A stretch of DNA of 61,070 bases, filler included. It is 7 parts of 7 records of this genome, joined end to end, with 100 filler letters (N's around TTAATTAATTAA, not from the genome) between each part and the next. Parts side by side here need not be neighbours in the genome. Positions count along the whole stretch, not along the records: positions 52,477 to 61,070 come from SRR31156797_29810; 6 more parts are not named here. One strand, 5' to 3'. The first letter of the stretch is position 1. Every line of letters begins with the position of its first letter. The position numbers and the translations under genes were made by a program. Below the pieces are notes generated by a model. The model did no database searches and was not told the DNA's origin. It saw only the letters and a program-made list of their open reading frames with translations. Below, piece by piece: positions 11,031-61,070 of the stretch.

Positions 11031-11130
11031 NNNNNNNNNNNNNNNNNNNNNNNNNNNNNNNNNNNNNNNNNNNNTTAATTAATTAANNNNNNNNNNNNNN
11101 NNNNNNNNNNNNNNNNNNNNNNNNNNNNNN
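11031..11130. other. Artificial contig spacer
   Basis: N44-TTAATTAATTAA-N44 (stops in all frames); gene style changes across it. Confidence 0.99.
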
Positions 11131-14179: not shown

Positions 14180-14775
14180 GACTCCACAATCAATTTCTTG
14201 ACCCTCTCTACTTCATTTTGTAAATTTTTTAGATCTTTAGAATTATCTATAATAAAACTTCCAAGTAGTTTTTTCTGCTCAATATCCATCTGATTCTCTA
14301 TTTTTACAATCGCTTCATCATAAGAACACTTATCGCGATCAATTAACCTTTGGACTTGAATATCTTTTGGAGTATAAACCACAATTGATCTTTTTATATC
14401 GTAGTTTCCTTTTTCAAAAAAAAGTGGTATATCGATAAGGTATGGCTTATTTTGAAGCTCAAATACCTTTGCTTTTTCTATGATCTTTTGTTTGATAAGT
14501 GGATGAACAAAAGCTTCAAGCTTCTCTTTTTGCTTCTTATTATTAAAAATAAGGCTCCCCAGTTTTTTTCGATCTACCCTATTGTCTTTAATATACTCTT
14601 GCCCAAATAAAGAAGCGATAGAGTCTACCTCTTCATCCAAAACTTCATGAGCTACTTTATCCGCATCGATTATTAAAAACCCATGAAGCATAAAAAGAGA
14701 TGCTACAGTACTTTTGCCTGTAGCTATCCCTCCTGTTAAAACAATAGCATTTTTAAAATGATTATCGTTTGGCAA
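14176..14775 (-). CDS. coaE: Dephospho-CoA kinase
   Basis: LTGGIATGKSTV, IIDADKVAH, DRKKLG, LEAFVHP, DIPLFFE. Confidence 0.95.
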   Translation of the reverse strand: MPNDNHFKNAIVLTGGIATGKSTVASLFMLHGFLIIDADKVAHEVLDEEVDSIASLFGQEYIKDNRVDRKKLGSLIFNNKKQKEKLEAFVHPLIKQKIIEKAKVFELQNKPYLIDIPLFFEKGNYDIKRSIVVYTPKDIQVQRLIDRDKCSYDEAIVKIENQMDIEQKKLLGSFIIDNSKDLKNLQNEVERVKKLIVES

Positions 14776-15310
14776 TACCAGTTATCGCTTTTGTGATATA
14801 TGTAGGGTGAATAAAGCTTGCATTTTGAAGCTCTGTATTGTAATAATTACACTCAGTTAATAGATCAGATACCTGAAGTACAATCTCCGCTTGTGGATGA
14901 TATTTTTTAGAAGCAAAGATCAAAGTATTGTGTCCAAAACTATATGGCATACAGATCCAAAAGTTTTTTCCAACTATCTCAAGCTCTTTTTTAGATACCT
15001 CTACATCTTTATAGATAAATGATGCTTTTGTACAAAATATCCCTTTAGATGGTTCAAGAATTCTTTCAATATTTGCCATCTCTAATTCACTTGGAGCATC
15101 AAGATTATAAAGGATAATATCAAAAACCCCTTCTAAATTTACACTGTCACTGTAAGTAACATCTTTACACTCATGTTTAGAAAGTTCGCTTTTAAAATCC
15201 TCACTCACTTCACCAACAACTAAAACTTTTTTTATATCTTTATGTGAACACATAGGAACATGTACCATCATCTCATCATATGCAAAGTTCTTATTTTCGC
15301 AGTTTGCCAT
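14762..15310 (-). CDS. Short spermidine-synthase-like (SpeE-like) protein
   Basis: YDEMMVHVPMCSH, KKVLVVG, FASKKYHP, YYNTELQNASF; overlaps the coaE start. Confidence 0.65.
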   Translation of the reverse strand: MANCENKNFAYDEMMVHVPMCSHKDIKKVLVVGEVSEDFKSELSKHECKDVTYSDSVNLEGVFDIILYNLDAPSELEMANIERILEPSKGIFCTKASFIYKDVEVSKKELEIVGKNFWICMPYSFGHNTLIFASKKYHPQAEIVLQVSDLLTECNYYNTELQNASFIHPTYITKAITGIAKR

Positions 15311-16876: not shown

Positions 16877-16976
16877 NNNNNNNNNNNNNNNNNNNNNNNN
16901 NNNNNNNNNNNNNNNNNNNNTTAATTAATTAANNNNNNNNNNNNNNNNNNNNNNNNNNNNNNNNNNNNNNNNNNNN
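16877..16976. other. Artificial contig spacer
   Basis: N44-TTAATTAATTAA-N44. Confidence 0.99.
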
Positions 16977-26368: not shown

Positions 26369-26468
26369 NNNNNNNNNNNNNNNNNNNNNNNNNNNNNNNN
26401 NNNNNNNNNNNNTTAATTAATTAANNNNNNNNNNNNNNNNNNNNNNNNNNNNNNNNNNNNNNNNNNNN
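26369..26468. other. Artificial contig spacer
   Basis: N44-TTAATTAATTAA-N44. Confidence 0.99.
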
Positions 26469-34593: not shown

Positions 34594-34693
34594 NNNNNNN
34601 NNNNNNNNNNNNNNNNNNNNNNNNNNNNNNNNNNNNNTTAATTAATTAANNNNNNNNNNNNNNNNNNNNNNNNNNNNNNNNNNNNNNNNNNNN
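34594..34693. other. Artificial contig spacer
   Basis: N44-TTAATTAATTAA-N44. Confidence 0.99.
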
Positions 34694-42172: not shown

Positions 42173-42272
42173 NNNNNNNNNNNNNNNNNNNNNNNNNNNN
42201 NNNNNNNNNNNNNNNNTTAATTAATTAANNNNNNNNNNNNNNNNNNNNNNNNNNNNNNNNNNNNNNNNNNNN
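42173..42272. other. Artificial contig spacer
   Basis: N44-TTAATTAATTAA-N44. Confidence 0.99.
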
Positions 42273-52376: not shown

Positions 52377-52476
52377 NNNNNNNNNNNNNNNNNNNNNNNN
52401 NNNNNNNNNNNNNNNNNNNNTTAATTAATTAANNNNNNNNNNNNNNNNNNNNNNNNNNNNNNNNNNNNNNNNNNNN
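52377..52476. other. Artificial contig spacer
   Basis: N44-TTAATTAATTAA-N44. Confidence 0.99.
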
Positions 52477-54115
52477 CCCAGAGGGGGCTGTTCTCGGACA
52501 GATAGGAGTAGAGGATGAGGCAGCCCCTTTCCCGGGCTTTGGCGGACATCCTCTCCAGTATCTTCACCCCCGATGAGTCGATATCGGAGATCCTCTTCAG
52601 ATCCAGGATGATGGAACGGGCGCCGCTCTCTATGAGTCGGTCCATCCGCTCAGACAGTTCGTCAGCCGTGCCGAAGAAAAGGGAGCCCTCCAGCTCGGCC
52701 AGGAATATCTCATCCCCCCTGGAAGTCAGGATCTCCATATCACGGGCGGGCCGCTGGGTCTTGGATCGTATACCCGCCCCCGTATGGATCCTGCGCAGCA
52801 TGGAGACCTTGCTCTTCCGGTAGACATAGAGGAAGAAGGAGATGGCCATGCCCGCCAGAACGGCGGAGATCAGGTTGCTGAGCAGGGTGATGGAGATCAC
52901 CATCAGGACGATGGTCAGGTTCCCCAGCAGGGCCGTGTTCAGCCCTGTCTTCCGGCTCCAGATCCGGCGGCAGAGATCGATCAGCCAGGTATCGAACATA
53001 TTCACGGCGATGATCATGACCAGCCCGGCGATCACCGACAGGGGGATGAAACGGATCAGGGGACGGAGGACCGTAGCGATGACCAGAACGAAAAGGGTGC
53101 ACAGCAGAGCGGACGCCCGGCTCCGCCCTCCGCTCAATACATTGGTCATGCTGCGGGTGGAAGAGCCTCCCCCCACCAGGCCGCCGGCGAAGACGGTCAA
53201 AAGATTCCCCACCCCCTGCACAATGAGCTCCCGGTTGGCGTCCACCGACTCATAGGTGATGTTCTGGATGGCCAGGGAGCTCAACAGGGTATCGGTGGAC
53301 GAGAGGATGGCGATGCTGAAAGCGGTCACCAGGATCCCCGTAAGGGAGGCGGCGAGCAGGCCGCTGCGGAAGATCTCGGGATTGCTCGTCAGATAGAAGA
53401 TATTGCGGTAGCTCAGCTCGATCGAACCCAGAGTCGCCCCCGGATCGGAACTCAGGCCGAAACGGATCAGCAGATGATGGATGACGCATCCGGCCAGGAT
53501 CACCGGGACATGAACGGGGACCCTGCGGATCAGCCTCCTCAGGATGAGGAAGAGCAGGACCGTCAGCAAGGAGAGGGACAGGGCGTAGGGATTCAGCTCG
53601 TCCAGAGCCCGGAAGAATCCCCCGCTCCTCTTCTCGACGCCGATGATGTTCCAGGCCTGGCTTTTCAGGAGGAGAAGGACCTTGCTGTTGATCACGCCTA
53701 CGATCACCGGATAGGAGATGTACTTAATGATATCCCCCAGGCGGAAGAGCCCCAGCAGGGTCTGAATCAGGCCGGCTGCCAGAAGAAGGATGAAGAGCAG
53801 GCTCAGGGCCTGGTTCGCAGGGACGGCCGGGTCAAGGGAAAGGAGCTGTCCCAGAAAGGCGGCCACCGCCAGAGCGACCCCCGCCCGGGGACCGGATATC
53901 AGCCCCGTCGTCCGTGAGAAGAGGGCGGAGAATCCGCCCAGAACGATGGAACAGATCCAGCCCGAGAGTATGCCCATGCTGATGAAGGCGGGTCCCAGAG
54001 GGGCGAAGGCGACCATGCCGAACACGATATTCCCCGGCAGGGAGATCACCGCCGTAGACAGAGCGGCGAACAGTTCCTTTCCGAATTCCGGAGCGTTCCC
54101 GGGGACTCTGGTCAC
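52477..54115 (-). CDS. SulP/SLC26 anion transporter with STAS domain; 3'-partial
   Basis: ISGP, LGLFRLGDIIKYISYPV, DANRELIVQGVGN, IPLSVIAG; STAS LEGSLFFGTA...LDLKRISDIDSSG. Confidence 0.92.
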
Positions 54116-54122
54116 AAACGGC

Positions 54123-56228
54123 TCACTTCCTGGTCAGCTTGGTTACGCCGTTCCAGTCAGCGGGGACCGAGTCCGGATACTTCCTGAAGAAGCTGCAGCG
54201 TTTGATGAAGAGTTTGACAGCCTCATCGTCTGGACCGAAGTTTTTCTTCAGATGAAGAAAGTAGCGCAGTGAGTTGGTCCAGTCCCGCTTCAGGTAGAGC
54301 CCCAGGGCCTTTTCATAGATCTGAACATACTCCTCACGCCTGCCGCCGGGCCTGTTTTCGGCCTCGGAAATCAGCTCGTAGATCCGGGTTCCCTCGTTCT
54401 TGCCCTTCACCGCCACGATGTCCAGAAAGCGGCAGTAGAACTGGTCCTTCACCTCTCTCCAGGTATCCTCGTCGATGATGATCTTCGTGCCGTAGAGCTT
54501 GTTGATCCCCTCGATGCGGGAGGCCAGATTGACGTGGTCTCCGATGGCGCTGTAGTTGATCCGGTCCGAAGAGCCCACGTTGCCGACGACCACCCGGCCC
54601 GTGCCAATGCCGATGCGGGTTTCCATCACCGGCTTGTTGTAGCTCTGCCACTGATCGTTCAGACTGCTCAGCCTCTCCTGGCAGCGGAGGGCGGTATGGC
54701 AGGCCCGGGCGCTGGCGTCCTCCAGCCTGACGGGAGCCCCCCAGAAGGCCATGATGGAGTCGCCGATGTATTTGTCGATAGTCCCCGCCTCCTCCATGAT
54801 GATTCGCGACAGCTCGTCGAAGTACTCGGACAGGTGCTGCATCAGGAAGTCGGAGGAGAGGTTCTCGCTTATGGTGGTGAATCCCTTGATATCCGTGAAG
54901 AAAAGGGTCAGCTTCTTGGGAACGCCTCCCACCTCCACCTCCTCGCCGTTGTCGATCAGCTGGCGCACCAGATCGGCGGGGACGTATTTCCGGAAGGCCT
55001 TGAGCCCCTGGACCGCATTGAACAGGGAGACGCTCATATTGTTTATCTCCACGATGGAGGAGCTCACCTTGTCGGAGATGTCCAGATCGAAGTTCTGAAG
55101 CTTCTCATTCTGCCCGGCCAGCTCTTCAAGGGGAGCCGTTATCCTGCCGGAGATGTAGAAGATCACCACGATGGACAGGAGGAAGATGCAGACGATGGCC
55201 AGGGCGATCATCAGGATGACCCGGTACACGCCCTCCAGGATATCCCGTTCGGAAATGACCGAGATGATCTTCCAGTCCACGCCGAGGTCCTCGGAGATAT
55301 CCGAAACCCTGAAGAAGTAATTCTGCCGGCCGTACTTGAAGTTGAACTCCCGCAGCCCCTCGCTCTTATAGCGCAGAAAGGCGGAGATGACATGCACGTC
55401 ATCCAGGCCGTCCAGCTTCTTGATCCTTTTGACGGTGCTGCTTTTGCCGCCCTCGTCGACCACGGTCTCCTCCACGAGGATCTCTTCGAAATTCTGGGAG
55501 GCGATGATCTGCTCCTTATCGTCGACGATATAGAGCCGGCTGTTTTCGCTGATGGTCTGCTCCTTCAGAAAGGAGGAGAGCTTCTCCACGGGGATGTTCA
55601 CGCAGACCACGGCGCCCTTGTCCCCCGATTCGGTCAATACCGGATAGGCGCAGCCGATAACGGGCTTCTGGCTTGTGGTGGCCACATAGGCCTCGGTCCA
55701 GTAGTAGCGCTCCATAATCCCCGTGTTCTTGTACCAGACCCGGGAGCGGGGATCGAAGGTGGGGATCTTCTCCTTCCTGTCCACAATCTCGAAATTCTCA
55801 TCCCGCTGGATCCGGAACTCCTCGGGGGGCGTTTTGTCCCGGTTTATCAGCCTGGTCTCCAGAACCGGAGTGCGCCGGACCTGCACGTAGTTGCCCACCC
55901 GGTCGGCGATGAAGTAGCTCTCCAGCTGCTCGGTCATCAGAATGGGATTCCACATAAAATCCCAGAGCTTTTCATGATCCTCCACAAGCCCGTCGTAGCG
56001 GATCAGGGGCTCGGCCAGACGGGTGAAGGAGGAAGGGATGCCCAGAAAGGAGTTTGTCCTCTCTTTGACCTTTCCCACCACCTCGCTGGAGATCTTCTCC
56101 GAGAGCCCGAACACGATCTTCGTCGTCTGCATATAGAAGATGACCGTGACCAGTACGCCGGAGATCATCATCAGGGAGACGAAGATCTGCAGAAGCCTGA
56201 TCCTGAAGGTCTGATTTCGTTTAAACAT
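54123..56228 (-). CDS. Membrane-bound class III adenylate cyclase (TM - Cache-like sensor - TM - HAMP - cyclase - helical tail)
   Basis: RSRVWY and WTEAY Cache-like motifs; ITAPLEEL HAMP; catalytic FTDIKGFT, DKYIGD, RIGI, YSAIGDHVNLASRIE. Confidence 0.92.
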   Translation of the reverse strand: MFKRNQTFRIRLLQIFVSLMMISGVLVTVIFYMQTTKIVFGLSEKISSEVVGKVKERTNSFLGIPSSFTRLAEPLIRYDGLVEDHEKLWDFMWNPILMTEQLESYFIADRVGNYVQVRRTPVLETRLINRDKTPPEEFRIQRDENFEIVDRKEKIPTFDPRSRVWYKNTGIMERYYWTEAYVATTSQKPVIGCAYPVLTESGDKGAVVCVNIPVEKLSSFLKEQTISENSRLYIVDDKEQIIASQNFEEILVEETVVDEGGKSSTVKRIKKLDGLDDVHVISAFLRYKSEGLREFNFKYGRQNYFFRVSDISEDLGVDWKIISVISERDILEGVYRVILMIALAIVCIFLLSIVVIFYISGRITAPLEELAGQNEKLQNFDLDISDKVSSSIVEINNMSVSLFNAVQGLKAFRKYVPADLVRQLIDNGEEVEVGGVPKKLTLFFTDIKGFTTISENLSSDFLMQHLSEYFDELSRIIMEEAGTIDKYIGDSIMAFWGAPVRLEDASARACHTALRCQERLSSLNDQWQSYNKPVMETRIGIGTGRVVVGNVGSSDRINYSAIGDHVNLASRIEGINKLYGTKIIIDEDTWREVKDQFYCRFLDIVAVKGKNEGTRIYELISEAENRPGGRREEYVQIYEKALGLYLKRDWTNSLRYFLHLKKNFGPDDEAVKLFIKRCSFFRKYPDSVPADWNGVTKLTRK

Positions 56229-59200
56229 CCAGATACCCCACCCAGTTCTTTTCGGTCAGTTCGGGACTGTTCCTGGCCACCGTAAGCTTCCTGCCGAGTA
56301 GCTCAACCGAGCGTTCCCGCCCCTTCAGCCTCTTTCTCAGATAGTCCACGTATTTCTGCGCCCCGTCCCAGTCCTTTCTCCTGTAGAGGCCGAAGGCCGT
56401 TTCGTAGATCTTGATAAAGGTCAGCCTGCTCTCCGACAGCTGGTCCCGGCGGGAGGCGCAGAGCTCGTAGATCTTCATCTTCTTGTTGCCGCCGGGCAGC
56501 CGGATGATGTCCAGCAGACGGCAGACCGCCTCGTCCCCCAAGGCCTTTTTCACATCCGAGCTGATGATGACCTTCGTCCCGTAACGGGGATTCAGGGAAC
56601 TCAGATACTGGCTCACCGGCAGGGTGCGTCCCAGTATGATGTTCTCCTTCACCAGCTGCTGTTTCTGATTCAGGATCAGGACCTCCTCGGCATGGATGCC
56701 TATCCCGCCGCCCTTCCGCAGAGGGGAATCGCTCTGACCGGGACGGGAGCCGTTTCCCTCCCTGAGGCTGTTCACGTCCTCCAGGCGGCTCTGAAAGAGA
56801 AGGGCTGCGGCGCCGGCATGCGCCACCGGACCGTCCAGGGAATTCCGGGAGTTCCAGGAGACCTGGAGGTTCCCTCCCCTGTAACGCAGCAGCTGACCGT
56901 TCTCCTCGGCGATGATCTCATGCATCAGGCCGCTCTGGAGAACGAAGTCCTTCACCCCCGTCTCCACATTGCCGACCGACGCGATATCGTAGAGCGGGGC
57001 GTCCAGGCTGAGAACGCTGTAGTAGGAGACCCGCTTCATATCCGAAAGGATCTGATCCCCCACCCTGTCCAGGCGCTTGAAGGAGTTCATGGTCCGCTCG
57101 TCGATTCCCTTGCGTTCGACGACCTCATCCCGCCTGCCCGCACTGACAAGGAAGAGTAAGCCCAGAACCAGGGTGAAGACACCGAAGATACCGATACCGC
57201 CGGAAGTGCTGTTCCCGGCAAAGGCGATGATGGCTCCCAGAACCATGGGGCCCATGATATGGCCGAAACGTTCCAGAAAGGTGTAGACCGCGATCATGGG
57301 ACCGTATCCGTACTGCTCCGCGGATCTCGTCTTGGTGATCTGCGTCACGATGGGCGCGCTGATGAGGCCGTTGGCGACGCCGATGGTCAGAAGGCCGATC
57401 ACCGCCAGAATGGGATAGGCCGAGTCCAAAAACAGCCCCTGATAACCGATCAGCATCATCCCCAGGCCGCCGAATACGGCGCTCAGGAAGAGGACCGACC
57501 GGGTGTTGCCGCTCCTGTCCGCCCGTTTGGAGGCGATCTTGGTCACCAGCATGGAGATCAGGAAGAAGAGCATGAGGAAGCGCCCGATCTCCTCCTGAGA
57601 GTAGCGGAGGGAGGCCAGAAGCAGGGGTACGGCGAAGTTGACGACCCCTGTGATGCCCATCTTGGCGGGGATGCCCGTCAGAAAGAGGACCTTCAGGAAG
57701 CTGCCGTCCCGGAACACCTTGGGAATGTTCTTCAGCTCCAGCTTCTTGCCCGTAGCCTTGCCGGAGGCGTCGGCCTTGACCGAGGGAACCAGAAGCAGCA
57801 GATAGACGAAACCCGTTATGCTGATCAGGGAGGAGAGCAGAAAGAGCCTGCGGAAGCCCATGAACACATACAGGAGGGCACCGATGCCGGTACCGCCGAT
57901 GAGCGCGCTGTTCCGGGCGATCACCTTGATCGCCGCCCCCTGGGTTCTCTTCTCCCTGGGGGTAACCGAAAGCACATAGGACTGGAATCCGATCAGGAAA
58001 CAGCCCTGGCCGAGACCGCTCATGGCCCGCCCTGCGGTCAGCAGGAGGATGGAGTGGGAAGACGCGACGATGATGCAACCGGCCACCTCCGCCAGGAATC
58101 CCAGAGCCATCACATGCTTTATCCGCCCCCCGGCGGCGATGTTTCCAGCGGGGATCAGGGAGAACGCGAAGAAGAGGTAGTAGATGGTAAAGGGCACCGA
58201 GGAAACCAGACCGCTGTTCAGCTCCCTGACCAACAGGGGCAGGAAGGGCACGGCCATGGAGGATACGAAGACCACGAGGAAATAGGCCGCCTTGATCAGC
58301 TCCAGGGAGACGGCCGGGTCGATCCGCTCGGGCAGCTCGCTGCCGCCTCTGCGGTTCAGAGACTCAGCGTAGGCCAGGCCGACGTTGAGGAAGATCATGG
58401 CGATCAGACTCGCGCCCACAAGAAGGGCCAGGAAGTTGATGATGCTGTCCAGGACGGCGTTGCGGACCTCCGTTTTGGGTACGCTGACCACCACCATCAG
58501 ATTCTCCAGGGCTCCGCTCCCGGCGGCCCCCGCCCTCTCCAGGGGGATGTAGTTGATGATCAGCCGCAGGTTATCGGGAGAGAAGATCTTCCCGATCATG
58601 CTCTCGTTGGAGTCATAGCGGATCTCCTGGGCGGCGGGGGCCTGCACATCCGTGCCCACCACCCGGTTGATGGAGACCGATTCCACAAAGGCGTAGCGCT
58701 CCTTGAAGTTGGCCAGGATATCGTTGATATGGGACAGGTCGTCAAACTCTATCCCCAGCTCCCTGACCGGAATCAGGCGCTCCGAGAGCAGGTTTCCGAT
58801 GGCCTCGGTCTTACCCCTCACTCCCGTTTCGTAGATATCGATGGTGACGAAGGTGACATAGCCCCCCAGCAGGATGAACAGGATCAGATAGAGGGATTTG
58901 ACGAAGATGTTGCGCTTGCGCCTGGACGCCACCGTACTGTTCTTCAACCGGGAGGTCGCTATGTAAAAGAAGATCGTCAGGAGTCCCGAGAAGATCATGA
59001 GGGCGATGTAGACCGAGCGGTAGGAAGAGGTTATAAAGGCGGACGAGCGCTCCTGGTTCAGGTAGATCACAAGCTCCCCCGCCCGGCTGCCGTCCTCCAG
59101 CAGGATATCCCGGGTCAGGCGGAAGATGTTCCCCGACTCATGGATCCGGACGCCCTCCCCGCCGGAGACCTCTATCTTCGAAGGATTCTCGTCCAGATCG

Positions 59201-59514
59201 GCGGGCGGGCTGTAGTCGCCGCTCACGTAGACAGACTTGTCCTGGGCGTCAAGGATCTCCAGGCTCAGCACATCCTCATTGGATTCGGAAACGATGGAGG
59301 CCAGATTGTCGTAGCCGCTGTACATGGTGATGGGAAATCCAGCATCCAGAAAGGGGGTGATCACATCCAGAACCGTATCGCTCTGGAGGATGCTGGTCTC
59401 CAGCCGGAAACGGATATAGGTACGCCGGGTCTCCCCCTGGCCGACCACGACCAGAAGCAGGAGCGTGGAACAGAGAATGACGGCGATAGGCAGTTTCTTG
59501 ATAAGGTTTTTCAT
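56221..59514 (-). CDS. Multidomain membrane protein: two extracytoplasmic domains + MFS transporter + degenerate class III cyclase-like domain
   Basis: TM-flanked soluble loops in aa ~25-360; about 12 TM MFS region with GRAMSGLGQG and ADRSG; C-terminal ~270 aa colinear with the neighbouring cyclase (YGTKVIIS, CRLLDII, IYEL, YETAFGLY..KDW, NWVG). Confidence 0.82.
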   Translation of the reverse strand: MKNLIKKLPIAVILCSTLLLLVVVGQGETRRTYIRFRLETSILQSDTVLDVITPFLDAGFPITMYSGYDNLASIVSESNEDVLSLEILDAQDKSVYVSGDYSPPADLDENPSKIEVSGGEGVRIHESGNIFRLTRDILLEDGSRAGELVIYLNQERSSAFITSSYRSVYIALMIFSGLLTIFFYIATSRLKNSTVASRRKRNIFVKSLYLILFILLGGYVTFVTIDIYETGVRGKTEAIGNLLSERLIPVRELGIEFDDLSHINDILANFKERYAFVESVSINRVVGTDVQAPAAQEIRYDSNESMIGKIFSPDNLRLIINYIPLERAGAAGSGALENLMVVVSVPKTEVRNAVLDSIINFLALLVGASLIAMIFLNVGLAYAESLNRRGGSELPERIDPAVSLELIKAAYFLVVFVSSMAVPFLPLLVRELNSGLVSSVPFTIYYLFFAFSLIPAGNIAAGGRIKHVMALGFLAEVAGCIIVASSHSILLLTAGRAMSGLGQGCFLIGFQSYVLSVTPREKRTQGAAIKVIARNSALIGGTGIGALLYVFMGFRRLFLLSSLISITGFVYLLLLVPSVKADASGKATGKKLELKNIPKVFRDGSFLKVLFLTGIPAKMGITGVVNFAVPLLLASLRYSQEEIGRFLMLFFLISMLVTKIASKRADRSGNTRSVLFLSAVFGGLGMMLIGYQGLFLDSAYPILAVIGLLTIGVANGLISAPIVTQITKTRSAEQYGYGPMIAVYTFLERFGHIMGPMVLGAIIAFAGNSTSGGIGIFGVFTLVLGLLFLVSAGRRDEVVERKGIDERTMNSFKRLDRVGDQILSDMKRVSYYSVLSLDAPLYDIASVGNVETGVKDFVLQSGLMHEIIAEENGQLLRYRGGNLQVSWNSRNSLDGPVAHAGAAALLFQSRLEDVNSLREGNGSRPGQSDSPLRKGGGIGIHAEEVLILNQKQQLVKENIILGRTLPVSQYLSSLNPRYGTKVIISSDVKKALGDEAVCRLLDIIRLPGGNKKMKIYELCASRRDQLSESRLTFIKIYETAFGLYRRKDWDGAQKYVDYLRKRLKGRERSVELLGRKLTVARNSPELTEKNWVGYLDV

Positions 59515-60704
59515 TCTCCCGTCCTCTCCACAGTCTCGCCGAAGTTCTTCAAGACCTCTCCCTCATAGCCGTAGATAAATCTTGCGTTCTCAAAGAGCTG
59601 AAAGGGAAAGGTGAAGCCTATCCTCTTGGCGGTCCGGAAGTTGATGGCTATATCAGGCGGCGTGACGATCCCCACCGGCAGCTCGCCGGGGAGGATGTTC
59701 CCCTTCAGGATCTCAATGGCGTACTGGGTAGCCAGCTCCGCCACCGAAGCCCTGTTGATTCCTATGGCCATCAGGGGACTCTCCAGGCCGGATCCTACCG
59801 TATCGGGGACCGAGGAGATCACGGGAATCTGCCTGGTGCTCTCGGACAGGGTCTCCAGTTCGGTAAAGATATTGGTGCTGGAGGTGAGCCAGAACACCGA
59901 GTGGTTCATCCCCGGGTCGCTGCCCTGGAAGTAGCTGAAAGCCTCTCCCAGCTTCTCCCGGATGGTATCCTTGATATCCTCCCCCTCCAGGGTGGGGATA
60001 GCGCATTTGTACACCCCGATGTCCATATCCAGAGATTCCAGATACTCCACGAAGGGATCGACCTCGGCGTCCACCACCTTGGTATGGTCCGGATCGTAGA
60101 GGATGGCGATGCTCTTCAGATCGGGCACGGCCTTGAACAGCCACTCCGTGTTGATCTTCATGGGAACGTTAACCGAGGTAAAGGCGATGTTAGTACCGCT
60201 TCCCGATTTGTAGTCGCCGACCTGACCGTTCAGAACGGGATCCTTGTTGACGCAGGTGACCACGGGGATCTCCTCCCCCTGGAAGTGGTTATGGGCATGG
60301 GCCGTGGATTCGGAGCCCATGGCGATCAGGATATCCGCATCGATCATCCTGGTGAACTCAAACACATCCCGAGCCAGGTCCTCCCTCTTGTTGCAGTTAT
60401 AGGTATAGACCTCGATATCGGGGATGTGTCTGCCCATCACCTTCAGAAAGGTGTTGAAAGCGGTGATATAGCTGGACGACTTCTTGGCAATCAGCACGAC
60501 CACGGTATAATCGAATTCGGCGACGTCCCTCCGCCAGTAACGGCGCCCCGGAATCCCCTGGTCATAGCTATCGTAATCCCAGAACTCCTCATTTCCGTCT
60601 GTGAACTTCAGCCAGGAAAGGTCCGTCGGCTCCGCCGAGAAAACAAACAAAGGGTTGAGTATAAAAACCAGGAAAAGGATCCTGAAAACAAGCCTGAAAC
60701 GCAT
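59511..60704 (-). CDS. Periplasmic solute-binding protein (ABC_sub_bind-like, type I fold)
   Basis: Signal peptide; ILIAMGS, IPVV...DPV..G, NIAFTS, VPDLKSIAILYD, IPVIS, ILKG..PGELPV, INFRTAKRIG; RBS AAGGGG; ATGA overlap with the next gene. Confidence 0.85.
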   Translation of the reverse strand: MRFRLVFRILFLVFILNPLFVFSAEPTDLSWLKFTDGNEEFWDYDSYDQGIPGRRYWRRDVAEFDYTVVVLIAKKSSSYITAFNTFLKVMGRHIPDIEVYTYNCNKREDLARDVFEFTRMIDADILIAMGSESTAHAHNHFQGEEIPVVTCVNKDPVLNGQVGDYKSGSGTNIAFTSVNVPMKINTEWLFKAVPDLKSIAILYDPDHTKVVDAEVDPFVEYLESLDMDIGVYKCAIPTLEGEDIKDTIREKLGEAFSYFQGSDPGMNHSVFWLTSSTNIFTELETLSESTRQIPVISSVPDTVGSGLESPLMAIGINRASVAELATQYAIEILKGNILPGELPVGIVTPPDIAINFRTAKRIGFTFPFQLFENARFIYGYEGEVLKNFGETVERTGE

Positions 60705-60990
60705 CGTATGCCCCTTATGAGTATCCAACTTTTTGTCTTTATTGTAATTATTATATCACAGCAATTCCATTATTTATCGACACGAAAGCCCATTCCCTTG
60801 AATACCAGGGCCATTGCCTGAACGCCCGGGCGCTCGGACCTCCGGGAGCAAAATACGCGGAATACCCGTTGCCGGCCCTTGAGCAAAATATGAGTTAAAT
60901 CCTATGATACATGGCATTAGTCATCACTAAGCCATCACCGGAATATAACAAAATCAATATCGTACTTGATAGAATACAGGAAAGGGAACA

Positions 60991-61070
60991 ATGAGAAACT
61001 ATCTGACGGCTCAGGAAGTCTCGAAAGAGCTCGTTTCAGTGGGAGTAAAGAAAGCGAACAGGCCCCTGGG
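60991..61070 (+). CDS. Probable formate/nitrite transporter (FNT) N-terminus; 3'-partial
   Basis: RBS AGGAAAGGG; MRNYLTAQEVSKELVSVGVKKANRPL resembles FNT N-termini. Only 26 codons are visible. Confidence 0.45.
   Translation, partial: MRNYLTAQEVSKELVSVGVKKANRPL

Follow-up and report, generated by a model that had tools for sequence, protein, structure and literature searches.

Sensors such as LuxP-LuxQ, TorT-TorS, NspS-MbaA and MBP-Tar are stimulated by solute-binding proteins (SBPs). In these systems the liganded SBP binds the periplasmic domain of the receptor. Transporter folds may also serve as receptors, as in UhpC of E. coli, which works with UhpB, and in Snf3 and Rgt2 of yeast, where a receptor of this kind controls a separate signalling enzyme. 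Four classes of SBP-stimulated receptors are given in the available part of a 2021 review (PMC8050422), these being chemoreceptors, sensor kinases, the GGDEF/EAL proteins of cyclic di-GMP signalling and one Ser/Thr kinase system. No adenylate cyclase is named among these receptors in that part of the review, and the term MFS (major facilitator superfamily) is absent from its text. The same source describes the mycobacterial GlnH/GlnX/PknG system, in which GlnX, a protein with four transmembrane helices (TMs) and two periplasmic four-helix bundles, links an SBP to a cytosolic Ser/Thr kinase. Here we analysed a stretch of DNA of 61,070 nucleotides (the window), which contains consecutive genes for an SBP, an MFS fusion protein with a sensor module and a cyclase-like tail, an adenylate cyclase and a SulP-STAS transporter. 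This arrangement is more than chance, as further genomes also contain these genes side by side; the four-gene cluster is a real, conserved gene set. The unit conserved across phyla is the pair of SBP and sensor-MFS protein, not the four-gene operon. The more general finding is an uncharacterised input pair with interchangeable outputs.

Judged by architecture alone, the nearest analogue of the locus would be GlnH/GlnX/PknG. As in that system, there is an SBP without an adjacent ABC partner, a four-TM protein for which two periplasmic domains are predicted, and an enzyme on the inner side. A scan of species-representative genomes gave 11 related loci (L001-L011), and in L003-L005 and L010 the pair adjoins a Ser/Thr kinase, which again resembles the PknG system. 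Unlike in GlnX, the predicted periplasmic domains are PDC/Cache-like and not four-helix bundles, a full MFS body is fused to them, and the output in the window is an adenylate cyclase. As in LuxP-LuxQ and the other SBP-stimulated sensors, the SBP gene stands beside a signalling gene. Unlike in the receptors listed in the available part of PMC8050422, an adenylate cyclase and an MFS protein are involved here. UhpC, Snf3 and Rgt2 differ from the fusion protein in that they lack an SBP, an extra periplasmic sensor module and a tail resembling a cyclase. The locus also resembles TRAP, TTT and TAXI-GltS systems, since the SBP is encoded beside a protein of secondary-carrier type and not beside an ABC carrier, although transport is here a prediction. 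In contrast to these systems, the partner is an MFS protein (PF07690) and not DctQM, TctAB or GltS, and the SBP belongs to PF04392 and not to DctP, TctC or TAXI. Assignment of the pair to TRAP or TTT systems was rejected, as Pfam gave MFS_1 and ABC_sub_bind only. In open-access papers and preprints we found no description of this family or operon, of an SBP-MFS sensor, of an MFS-cyclase fusion or of a studied SulP-cNMP protein (cNMP, cyclic nucleotide).

The window consists of seven contigs joined by six identical artificial linkers (N44-TTAATTAATTAA-N44, of the N/stop-codon type). Contig GC contents between 0.33 and 0.58 suggest that the assembly is fragmented and possibly mixed. The whole four-gene cluster lies on the last contig (52477-61070, GC 0.58), and its open reading frames (ORFs) are consecutive on the minus strand throughout. 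The stop of the SBP gene and the start of the fusion gene share a 4-bp ATGA overlap (59511-59514, GGAGAATGAAAAAC), the fusion and cyclase genes overlap by 8 bp (56221-56228, ATGTTTAA), and the cyclase and SulP genes are separated by 7 bp (GCCGTTT, 54116-54122). These junctions confirm the tight coupling of four same-strand genes on which the preliminary description was based. It had also reported that ABC ATPases and permeases, histidine kinases and DNA-binding regulators were not visible in the unit, and indeed Pfam detected no domain of any of these kinds in 52477-61070. Its domain calls were reproduced with Pfam, BLASTP and residue alignment, among them that of an MFS protein whose cyclase-like tail is catalytically dead.

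We searched the ORFs of the 11 loci with the four window proteins (phmmer), and ran Pfam on 112 of 121 predicted neighbours, leaving out nine peripheral ORFs of L004-L006 and L008-L009. In nine of the 11 loci (L001-L009) the sensor-MFS gene has an SBP homologue directly upstream on its own strand. Of the other two, L011 starts inside the MFS gene, and L010 has 347 bp of upstream sequence, which carries no SBP. No ABC partner genes were found beside the pair in L001-L005 and L007-L009; in L006 ABC ATPase genes lie near the pair on the opposite strand only. When the window is counted together with the 11 loci, a cyclase is adjacent to the pair in 4/12 (window, L001, L002 and L008), SulP in 3/12, a Ser/Thr kinase in 4/12 and type VI secretion genes in 4/12. 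Coupling to a cyclase is thus lineage-specific, since most of the related loci have no adjacent cyclase.

The closest arrangement was observed in L001, from a metagenome-assembled genome (MAG) of Spirochaetaceae, where the SBP, the tailed fusion and the dCache cyclase follow each other as in the window, with no SulP. L002 (SAR324 cluster) and L008 (a Deltaproteobacteria MAG) contain a SulP-STAS-cNMP_binding protein of 741 aa, encoded by the gene preceding the cyclase, a dCache cyclase, the SBP and a sensor-MFS protein of 902 aa that has no tail; the gene order in both differs from that of the window. Conservation of gene order, on which the preliminary description had staked its proposal, was therefore found in part: L001 has the same order without SulP, and L002 and L008 have the same set, but the four-gene operon is not a cross-phylum unit. 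The closest homologues of the cyclase share 49-95% identity with it. The closest cyclase and SulP homologues lie on contigs equal in size to those of the fusion homologues (6436, 40939, 56208, 15678, 17766 and 5722), which suggests, from equal contig sizes only, that the gene set stays together across a spirochaete-like clade.

Other lineages combine the pair with other genes. In L003-L005 (Oceanospirillaceae, Litoribrevibacter, Litoribacillus) the order is TssK, TssL, TssM, Ser/Thr kinase, SBP, sensor-MFS and a protein of about 420 aa without a Pfam match, with PAAR, DUF6931 and VgrG on the opposite strand. The kinase is short (265-291 aa) and directly precedes the pair. In L007 (uncultured Cyclobacteriaceae) the SBP and sensor-MFS genes are followed by VgrG, and in L010 (uncultured Methylomarinum) the sensor-MFS gene is followed by a gene for a Ser/Thr kinase of 743 aa. 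No signalling gene is adjacent in L006 (a MAG), L009 (Thiomargarita) and L011 (uncultured Pseudomonadota). Inside the type VI secretion clusters of Oceanospirillaceae the pair may act as a solute-sensing input to type VI secretion.

The SBP has 397 aa when counted from the ATG, or 405 aa if the upstream TTG (60728) is used, and carries an N-terminal signal peptide. It belongs to PF04392 (ABC_sub_bind, score 52.9 bits, cut-off 25.9), and it shares 36-44% identity with its counterparts encoded upstream of the sensor-MFS protein in L001-L009. The closest solved structures, 6hni, 3lft and 3lkv, are distant (E=4.6e-12 to 1.2e-8). The ligands of the three solved PF04392 proteins are L-Trp, L-Tyr and L-Phe, as given in the accessible part of PMC10443332. 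Identity with the tryptophan SBP TrpX was rejected, because the score for the NF041285 equivalog was far under its cut-off (47.2 bits vs 390).

The fusion protein (1097 aa) combines a 4-TM module, which bears two periplasmic domains of PDC-like type, with an MFS body of 12 TMs and a tail homologous to cyclases. Pfam recognized in it MFS_1 (residues 410-756) and no other domain. A full-length search among 5.8 billion proteins returned 12 matches, of which 10 were true relatives (six with the tail, four shorter), and in the databases searched the relatives are labelled generically as 'MFS transporter'. The sensor module was modelled with AlphaFold2 from a 60-sequence alignment (pLDDT 91.0, pTM 0.87). 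The predicted order is TM1, a stalk helix, a PDC-like domain (residues ~58-153), TM2, TM3, a second stalk helix, a second PDC-like domain (~253-346) and TM4. In Foldseek the model resembled PDC/Cache-type sensor domains that are extracellular, a model of WalK being the best match (E=2.5e-7). Further matches included KinD, PctA, rpHK1S-Z16, CusS and others (~1e-3 to 1e-2, with low TM-scores), and in an Atlas look-up the sole leads were of sCache type (36% and 15% of cluster members). No sequence repeat was detected between the two halves of the module (BLASTP, E=7.8), and in the model their likeness is purely structural. With TM-PDC-TM present twice, the module would be a single-chain mimic of a dimeric sensor.

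The sensor module is not confined to the window. A search of 1.84 billion representatives gave matches in 192 protein clusters (50% identity) at E<=0.001, of which 105 remained at E<=1e-10, and most of these proteins have 780-840 aa. We scanned with Pfam 30 of the 150 proteins listed, 23 chosen for odd length and seven typical, and found MFS_1 in 27 of the 30. P0045 and P0060 carry a PF12974 binding-protein domain at the N-terminus, and P0101 has a PF04392 SBP domain at the C-terminus of the same chain. In P0077 (616 aa) the module is followed by HisKA and HATPase_c in place of the MFS body. These proteins show that the module is a sensor able to drive a histidine kinase and able to be fused to a binding protein. 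An FHA domain is inserted within the MFS body of P0095, and in P0029 (1576 aa) a dCache domain lies behind the MFS body. P0029 was considered as an MFS-cyclase fusion and rejected, as its resemblance to the window cyclase is not significant (E=0.15) and Pfam detected no cyclase domain.

We modelled the complex of sensor residues 1-400 with SBP residues 24-397, the chains being folded without custom alignments. The complex score was 0.63, while the best of three controls reached 0.00; in a benchmark of this score, 51 of 78 solved complexes and two of 108 mismatched pairs attained that mark. Three runs shared at least 87% of contacts, with partner pLDDT of at least 86. In the predicted interface, two pseudo-symmetric regions of the sensor (residues 54-66 and 246-266, the stalk tips and the loops that follow them) contact the C-terminal lobe of the SBP (327-391). 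R246 of the sensor, one of only two invariant columns in the 60-sequence alignment, is placed in contact with SBP E372, which is invariant among 10 SBPs. On the sensor side the interface was enriched in conserved residues, both in alignment A1 (7/23 vs 36/400, p=0.0023) and in the 60-sequence alignment A2 (3/23 vs 12/400, p=0.026). The preliminary description had linked the SBP with the sensor-MFS protein. With adjacency across phyla (nine of 11 loci), SBP fusions and a complex model that passes its controls, this predicted link is well supported.

The MFS body showed a 12-helix MFS fold and matched MFS_1 (PF07690) with 113.7 bits (cut-off 33.4), which places it in the superfamily. Its Foldseek matches were DHA1-type carriers, namely VMAT2, NorA, YajR and MdfA (target TM-scores 0.59-0.83). 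The model of the full-length fusion was weaker (pLDDT 72.6). Conservation within the protein is highest in the MFS body, where polar and charged residues such as E476, K530, R534, N535, E748, R749 and H752 are invariant. A UhpC/OPA-type sensor was tried as an identity for the body and rejected (TIGR00881, 28.4 bits vs a cut-off of 407.75). In the SAR324 forms and in some gammaproteobacterial ones a charged insertion of about 60 residues lies between TM4 and the MFS body (alignment A1, columns ~411-470); the genes concerned are L002 12077-14782 and L008 10033-12738, and the window protein has no such insertion. In the tail-less forms this insertion might be a replacement contact for the cyclase.

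The adenylate cyclase (701 aa) is a membrane protein with a periplasmic dCache domain between two TMs, a linker, a class III catalytic domain and a helical tail. It matched Guanylate_cyc (PF00211) with 73 bits (cut-off 21.9), and its best solved relative, with the closest solved catalytic domain, is CyaB of Pseudomonas aeruginosa (3r5g, E=7.5e-37). Class III cyclases depend on two metal-binding Asp residues, a substrate-binding Lys, an Asp, Thr or Ser at a further substrate position, and Asn and Arg of the transition state. The window cyclase keeps all six (in FFTD, KYIGD, NYSAIG and VNLASR), with Ser at the Thr/Asp substrate position; Ser or Thr at this position is the class IIIb pattern. We aligned four cyclases (that of the window and three orthologues) with eight tails, and all four cyclases keep the six residues (FFTD, KYIGD, NY(S/T)xIG, xNLASR). 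Membership of the phosphodiesterase family GepA was rejected for the cyclase: its N-terminal half scored 98.5 bits, far under the cut-off of 1200, so that the two share a type of sensor and not a family.

Over its last 240 residues the fusion protein aligned with the neighbouring cyclase, matching its catalytic domain and its helical extension (28% identity, E=2e-26, BLASTP). The C-terminal extension, helical in the model, corresponds to cyclase residues ~630-695. PF00211 gave no match on the tail at E<=0.01, and against PDB sequences there were two matches only, both of them cyclases (E=0.082 and 0.62). All eight tails have other residues in place of the second metal Asp, Lys (Arg or Thr instead), Ser/Thr, Asn and Arg, and six retain the first metal Asp. 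By the profile and the six residues the tail is not a class III cyclase, and the label 'pseudocyclase' is correct, because five of the six catalytic residues are lost. In mammalian C1/C2 and in soluble guanylate cyclase alpha/beta, asymmetric class III heterodimers are formed whose halves complement each other into one active site. By analogy, the degenerate tail would pair with a competent domain. In contrast to these enzymes, the tail lacks residues of both half-sites and sits on a transporter, and pairing should therefore silence the cyclase.

The SulP protein belongs to SulP/SLC26 transporters with a STAS domain (Sulfate_transp 136 bits, STAS 42.1 bits, Pfam). Its frame is cut inside STAS after 546 codons, because position 52477 is the end of the contig and not of the gene. 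The protein shares its transporter core and STAS domain with SulP-STAS-cNMP_binding proteins, BicA and DauA, and the window copy is cut before any cNMP domain. BicA (NF050096 equivalog, 159.3 bits vs 880) and DauA (142 bits vs an equivalog cut-off of 614) were both rejected as identities. The closest relatives (52-55% identity) are P0160 (745 aa), with a cNMP domain, and P0159 (55%, 561 aa), without one. PF00027 is present in nearly all of the best 40 homologues of the window SulP and in most of the next ~35 after P0159 and P0160. These relatives, together with L002 and L008, bear out the earlier statement that some SulP-STAS proteins end in a cNMP-binding domain, and for relatives that bear it an action of cyclic AMP (cAMP) on SulP would be supported. 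In L001 a stand-alone cNMP-binding protein of 186 aa is encoded 5 kb downstream of the cyclase (14488-15045), and it is a possible alternative receiver of cAMP.

We read the operon, tentatively and with somewhat less than even confidence, as a binding-protein-dependent 'transceptor' wired to cAMP through a relay of five steps. In the first, which is well supported, the secreted PF04392 SBP would capture a periplasmic solute and dock on the stalk-loop regions of the sensor. Docking, possibly with hand-over of the solute to the MFS body, would then shift the conformation of the MFS body and tail. In the third step the dead tail, a paralogue of the neighbouring cyclase domain, would pair with that domain and hold the cyclase off; release from the tail would let the cyclase form active homodimers, with its own dCache domain as a second input. 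As the residues of the tail are lost and class III dimers are arranged head to tail, a heterodimer of tail and cyclase would have no complete active site. From paralogy and adjacency we infer that the MFS fusion may modulate the cyclase. In the fourth step, by comparison with relatives, cAMP would act through a C-terminal cNMP-binding domain of SulP-STAS and tune anion flux. The fifth step is speculative: the anion carried by SulP, for example bicarbonate, may feed back on the class IIIb-like cyclase. The SulP family includes bicarbonate carriers of the BicA type, and class IIIb cyclases (Ser/Thr type, as CyaB) are often responsive to bicarbonate. In other lineages the SBP and sensor-MFS pair would be a portable input, whose output is a cyclase, a histidine kinase fused to the sensor module, or a Ser/Thr kinase accompanied by type VI secretion genes. 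Of the relay sketched in the preliminary description, the passage from SBP to sensor stood, and the passages from tail to cyclase and from cAMP to SulP we still infer.

Several observations weigh against this relay. No cyclase lies beside the pair in L003-L007 and L009-L011, and L001 has no SulP next to its cyclase. The SAR324 forms keep the association with a cyclase and have no pseudo-cyclase tail. The tail therefore cannot be the sole link; in SAR324 either the link is made otherwise or the dCache domain of the cyclase senses separately. The window cyclase also has a dCache sensor of its own and could act independently, and the many invariant polar residues in the MFS helices fit a plain transporter as well. 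P0159, the closest relative of SulP, lacks a cNMP domain, and the SulP of the window ends before the deciding point. For the contigs of 40939, 56208 and others, co-location was read from equal size alone. As to docking, the SBP side of the interface was not enriched in conserved residues (11/28 vs 109/374, p=0.16), seven of 44 blindly drawn neighbouring gene pairs also passed the complex test, and the tool used no custom alignments for the chains.

The best conservation in the MFS body, with its invariant polar and charged residues, would be explained if the SBP and sensor-MFS protein formed an SBP-dependent secondary transporter, an MFS counterpart of TRAP/TTT with the 4-TM module as docking platform, while the cyclase and SulP were co-transcribed with it and functionally separate, or merely regulated expression. 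The pair has no signalling gene beside it in L006, L009 and L011. Solved PF04392 proteins bind amino acids for import (PMC10443332, accessible part), and new classes of SBP-dependent secondary transporters are still emerging, as reported in the part of PMC12344293 at hand. We nevertheless regard plain uptake as unlikely. The module is fused to a histidine kinase in P0077, and the MFS body of P0095 harbours an FHA domain; Ser/Thr kinases adjoin the pair in four loci (L003-L005, L010) and cyclases in another four, and a dead cyclase domain on a transporter is hard to explain without a link to a cyclase.

The information could also flow in the reverse direction. The cyclase, which has a periplasmic dCache domain of its own, would then be the sole sensor, cAMP or ATP would be read by the degenerate cyclase tail on the MFS side and by SulP through its cNMP domain, so that two transporters would be under control of the cyclase, and the SBP would merely feed the MFS transporter. 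The SulP-cNMP relatives point to cAMP-regulated transport within the gene set, and degenerate domains of nucleotide-cyclase type are receptors for nucleotides in other second-messenger systems, degenerate GGDEF and EAL domains being the analogy. However, the nucleotide-contacting residues are gone from the tail (Arg in place of Lys, and losses at the positions of Ser/Thr, Asn and Arg), the gene set persists in the SAR324 forms without the tail, and we know of no class III cyclase domain that acts as a cAMP receptor. We consider this direction of flow distinctly improbable. Chance adjacency, mis-assembly or spurious frames in GC-rich sequence from a mixed bin, to which the spread of GC among the contigs and the long antisense ORFs in the GC-rich stretch could point, has in our view been refuted by the conserved loci and is hardly credible, as all four proteins have strong family matches and homologues elsewhere, from near-identical to distant, L001 repeats the gene order and L002 and L008 the gene set, and the linker lies outside the genes, apart from cutting SulP.

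We return to the transceptor wired to cAMP. There is a fair chance that the pair is a new class of binding-protein-dependent MFS transceptor. The broader proposal is that this undescribed class is both a secondary carrier and a portable input with varied outputs, and that the operon encodes the first adenylate cyclase controlled by a binding protein, whose cAMP gates a SulP anion carrier; this proposal we hold as possible, with more doubt than belief. The pair looks like an undescribed route from solute sensing to second-messenger signals. If this is true, cAMP joins the outputs that binding proteins can control, an MFS-based member is added to the short list of binding-protein-dependent secondary carriers, and a function is given to a pseudo-cyclase domain. 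In the type VI clusters of Oceanospirillaceae the pair stands beside Ser/Thr kinases, and solutes could there have a new way of switching this secretion system on. With 192 clusters at 50% identity, the sensor-module family is not tiny.

Table 1. Positions of the features in the window and of the type VI secretion contexts in the related loci (MFS, major facilitator superfamily; SBP, solute-binding protein; TM, transmembrane helix).
Feature	Position	Strand	Basis or remark
SBP gene	59511-60704 (ATG start) or 59511-60728 (TTG start)	-	ORF call
Fusion gene	56221-59514	-	ORF call
Predicted sensor module of fusion, residues 1-400	58315-59514	-	AlphaFold2 model, Foldseek
MFS body of fusion, 12 TM, residues ~410-790	57145-58287	-	Pfam, Foldseek
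Pseudo-cyclase domain of fusion, residues ~830-1022	56449-57027	-	BLASTP to neighbouring cyclase
C-terminal helical extension of fusion, residues ~1028-1097	56224-56433	-	Alignment, model
Adenylate cyclase gene	54123-56228	-	ORF call
dCache domain of cyclase	55221-56129	-	Pfam dCache_1, 47.6 bits
Class III catalytic domain of cyclase	54393-54914	-	Pfam Guanylate_cyc
SulP gene, partial, GTG start 54115	52478-54115	-	ORF call, runs into linker
Non-coding region upstream of operon, up to divergent gene	60705-60990		ORF map
Divergent gene, 26 codons in window	60991-61068	+	Starts 286 bp upstream of operon
Artificial linkers	11031-11130, 16877-16976, 26369-26468, 34594-34693, 42173-42272, 52377-52476		Sequence
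Type VI secretion context, L003	1835-20041		
Type VI secretion context, L004	1757-17055		
Type VI secretion context, L005	4403-17021		
Type VI secretion context, L007	3872-8825		

Rfam gave no match on the cluster or on the whole window, and the tRNA scan found no tRNA. Promoter-like sites (3 vs 3.1 in shuffles) and terminator-like sites (9 vs 6.2) did not exceed chance. Opposite the cluster genes, on the plus strand, we observed long ORFs at 57259-59568 (769 aa), 54534-56285 (583 aa) and 52784-53917 (377 aa). Their translations abound in Asp, Gly, Gln, His and Arg, and resemble the shadow frames common in GC-rich coding DNA rather than genes.

The contig to the left of position 52377 has a GC content of 0.44, compared with 0.58 for the contig of the cluster. 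Its genes are not neighbours of the cluster, because it is a separate contig across a linker, and gene neighbourhood across a linker is meaningless, as the linkers are artificial. This contig (42273-52376) contains genes for an aldehyde dehydrogenase, a thiamine pyrophosphate (TPP) enzyme, an OpuA-type glycine-betaine ABC system, a methyltransferase of TRM5/TYW2 type and a RibD_C protein. Enzymes of the TYW2 type are typical of archaea and eukaryotes, and the contig may come from another organism than the 58% GC cluster.

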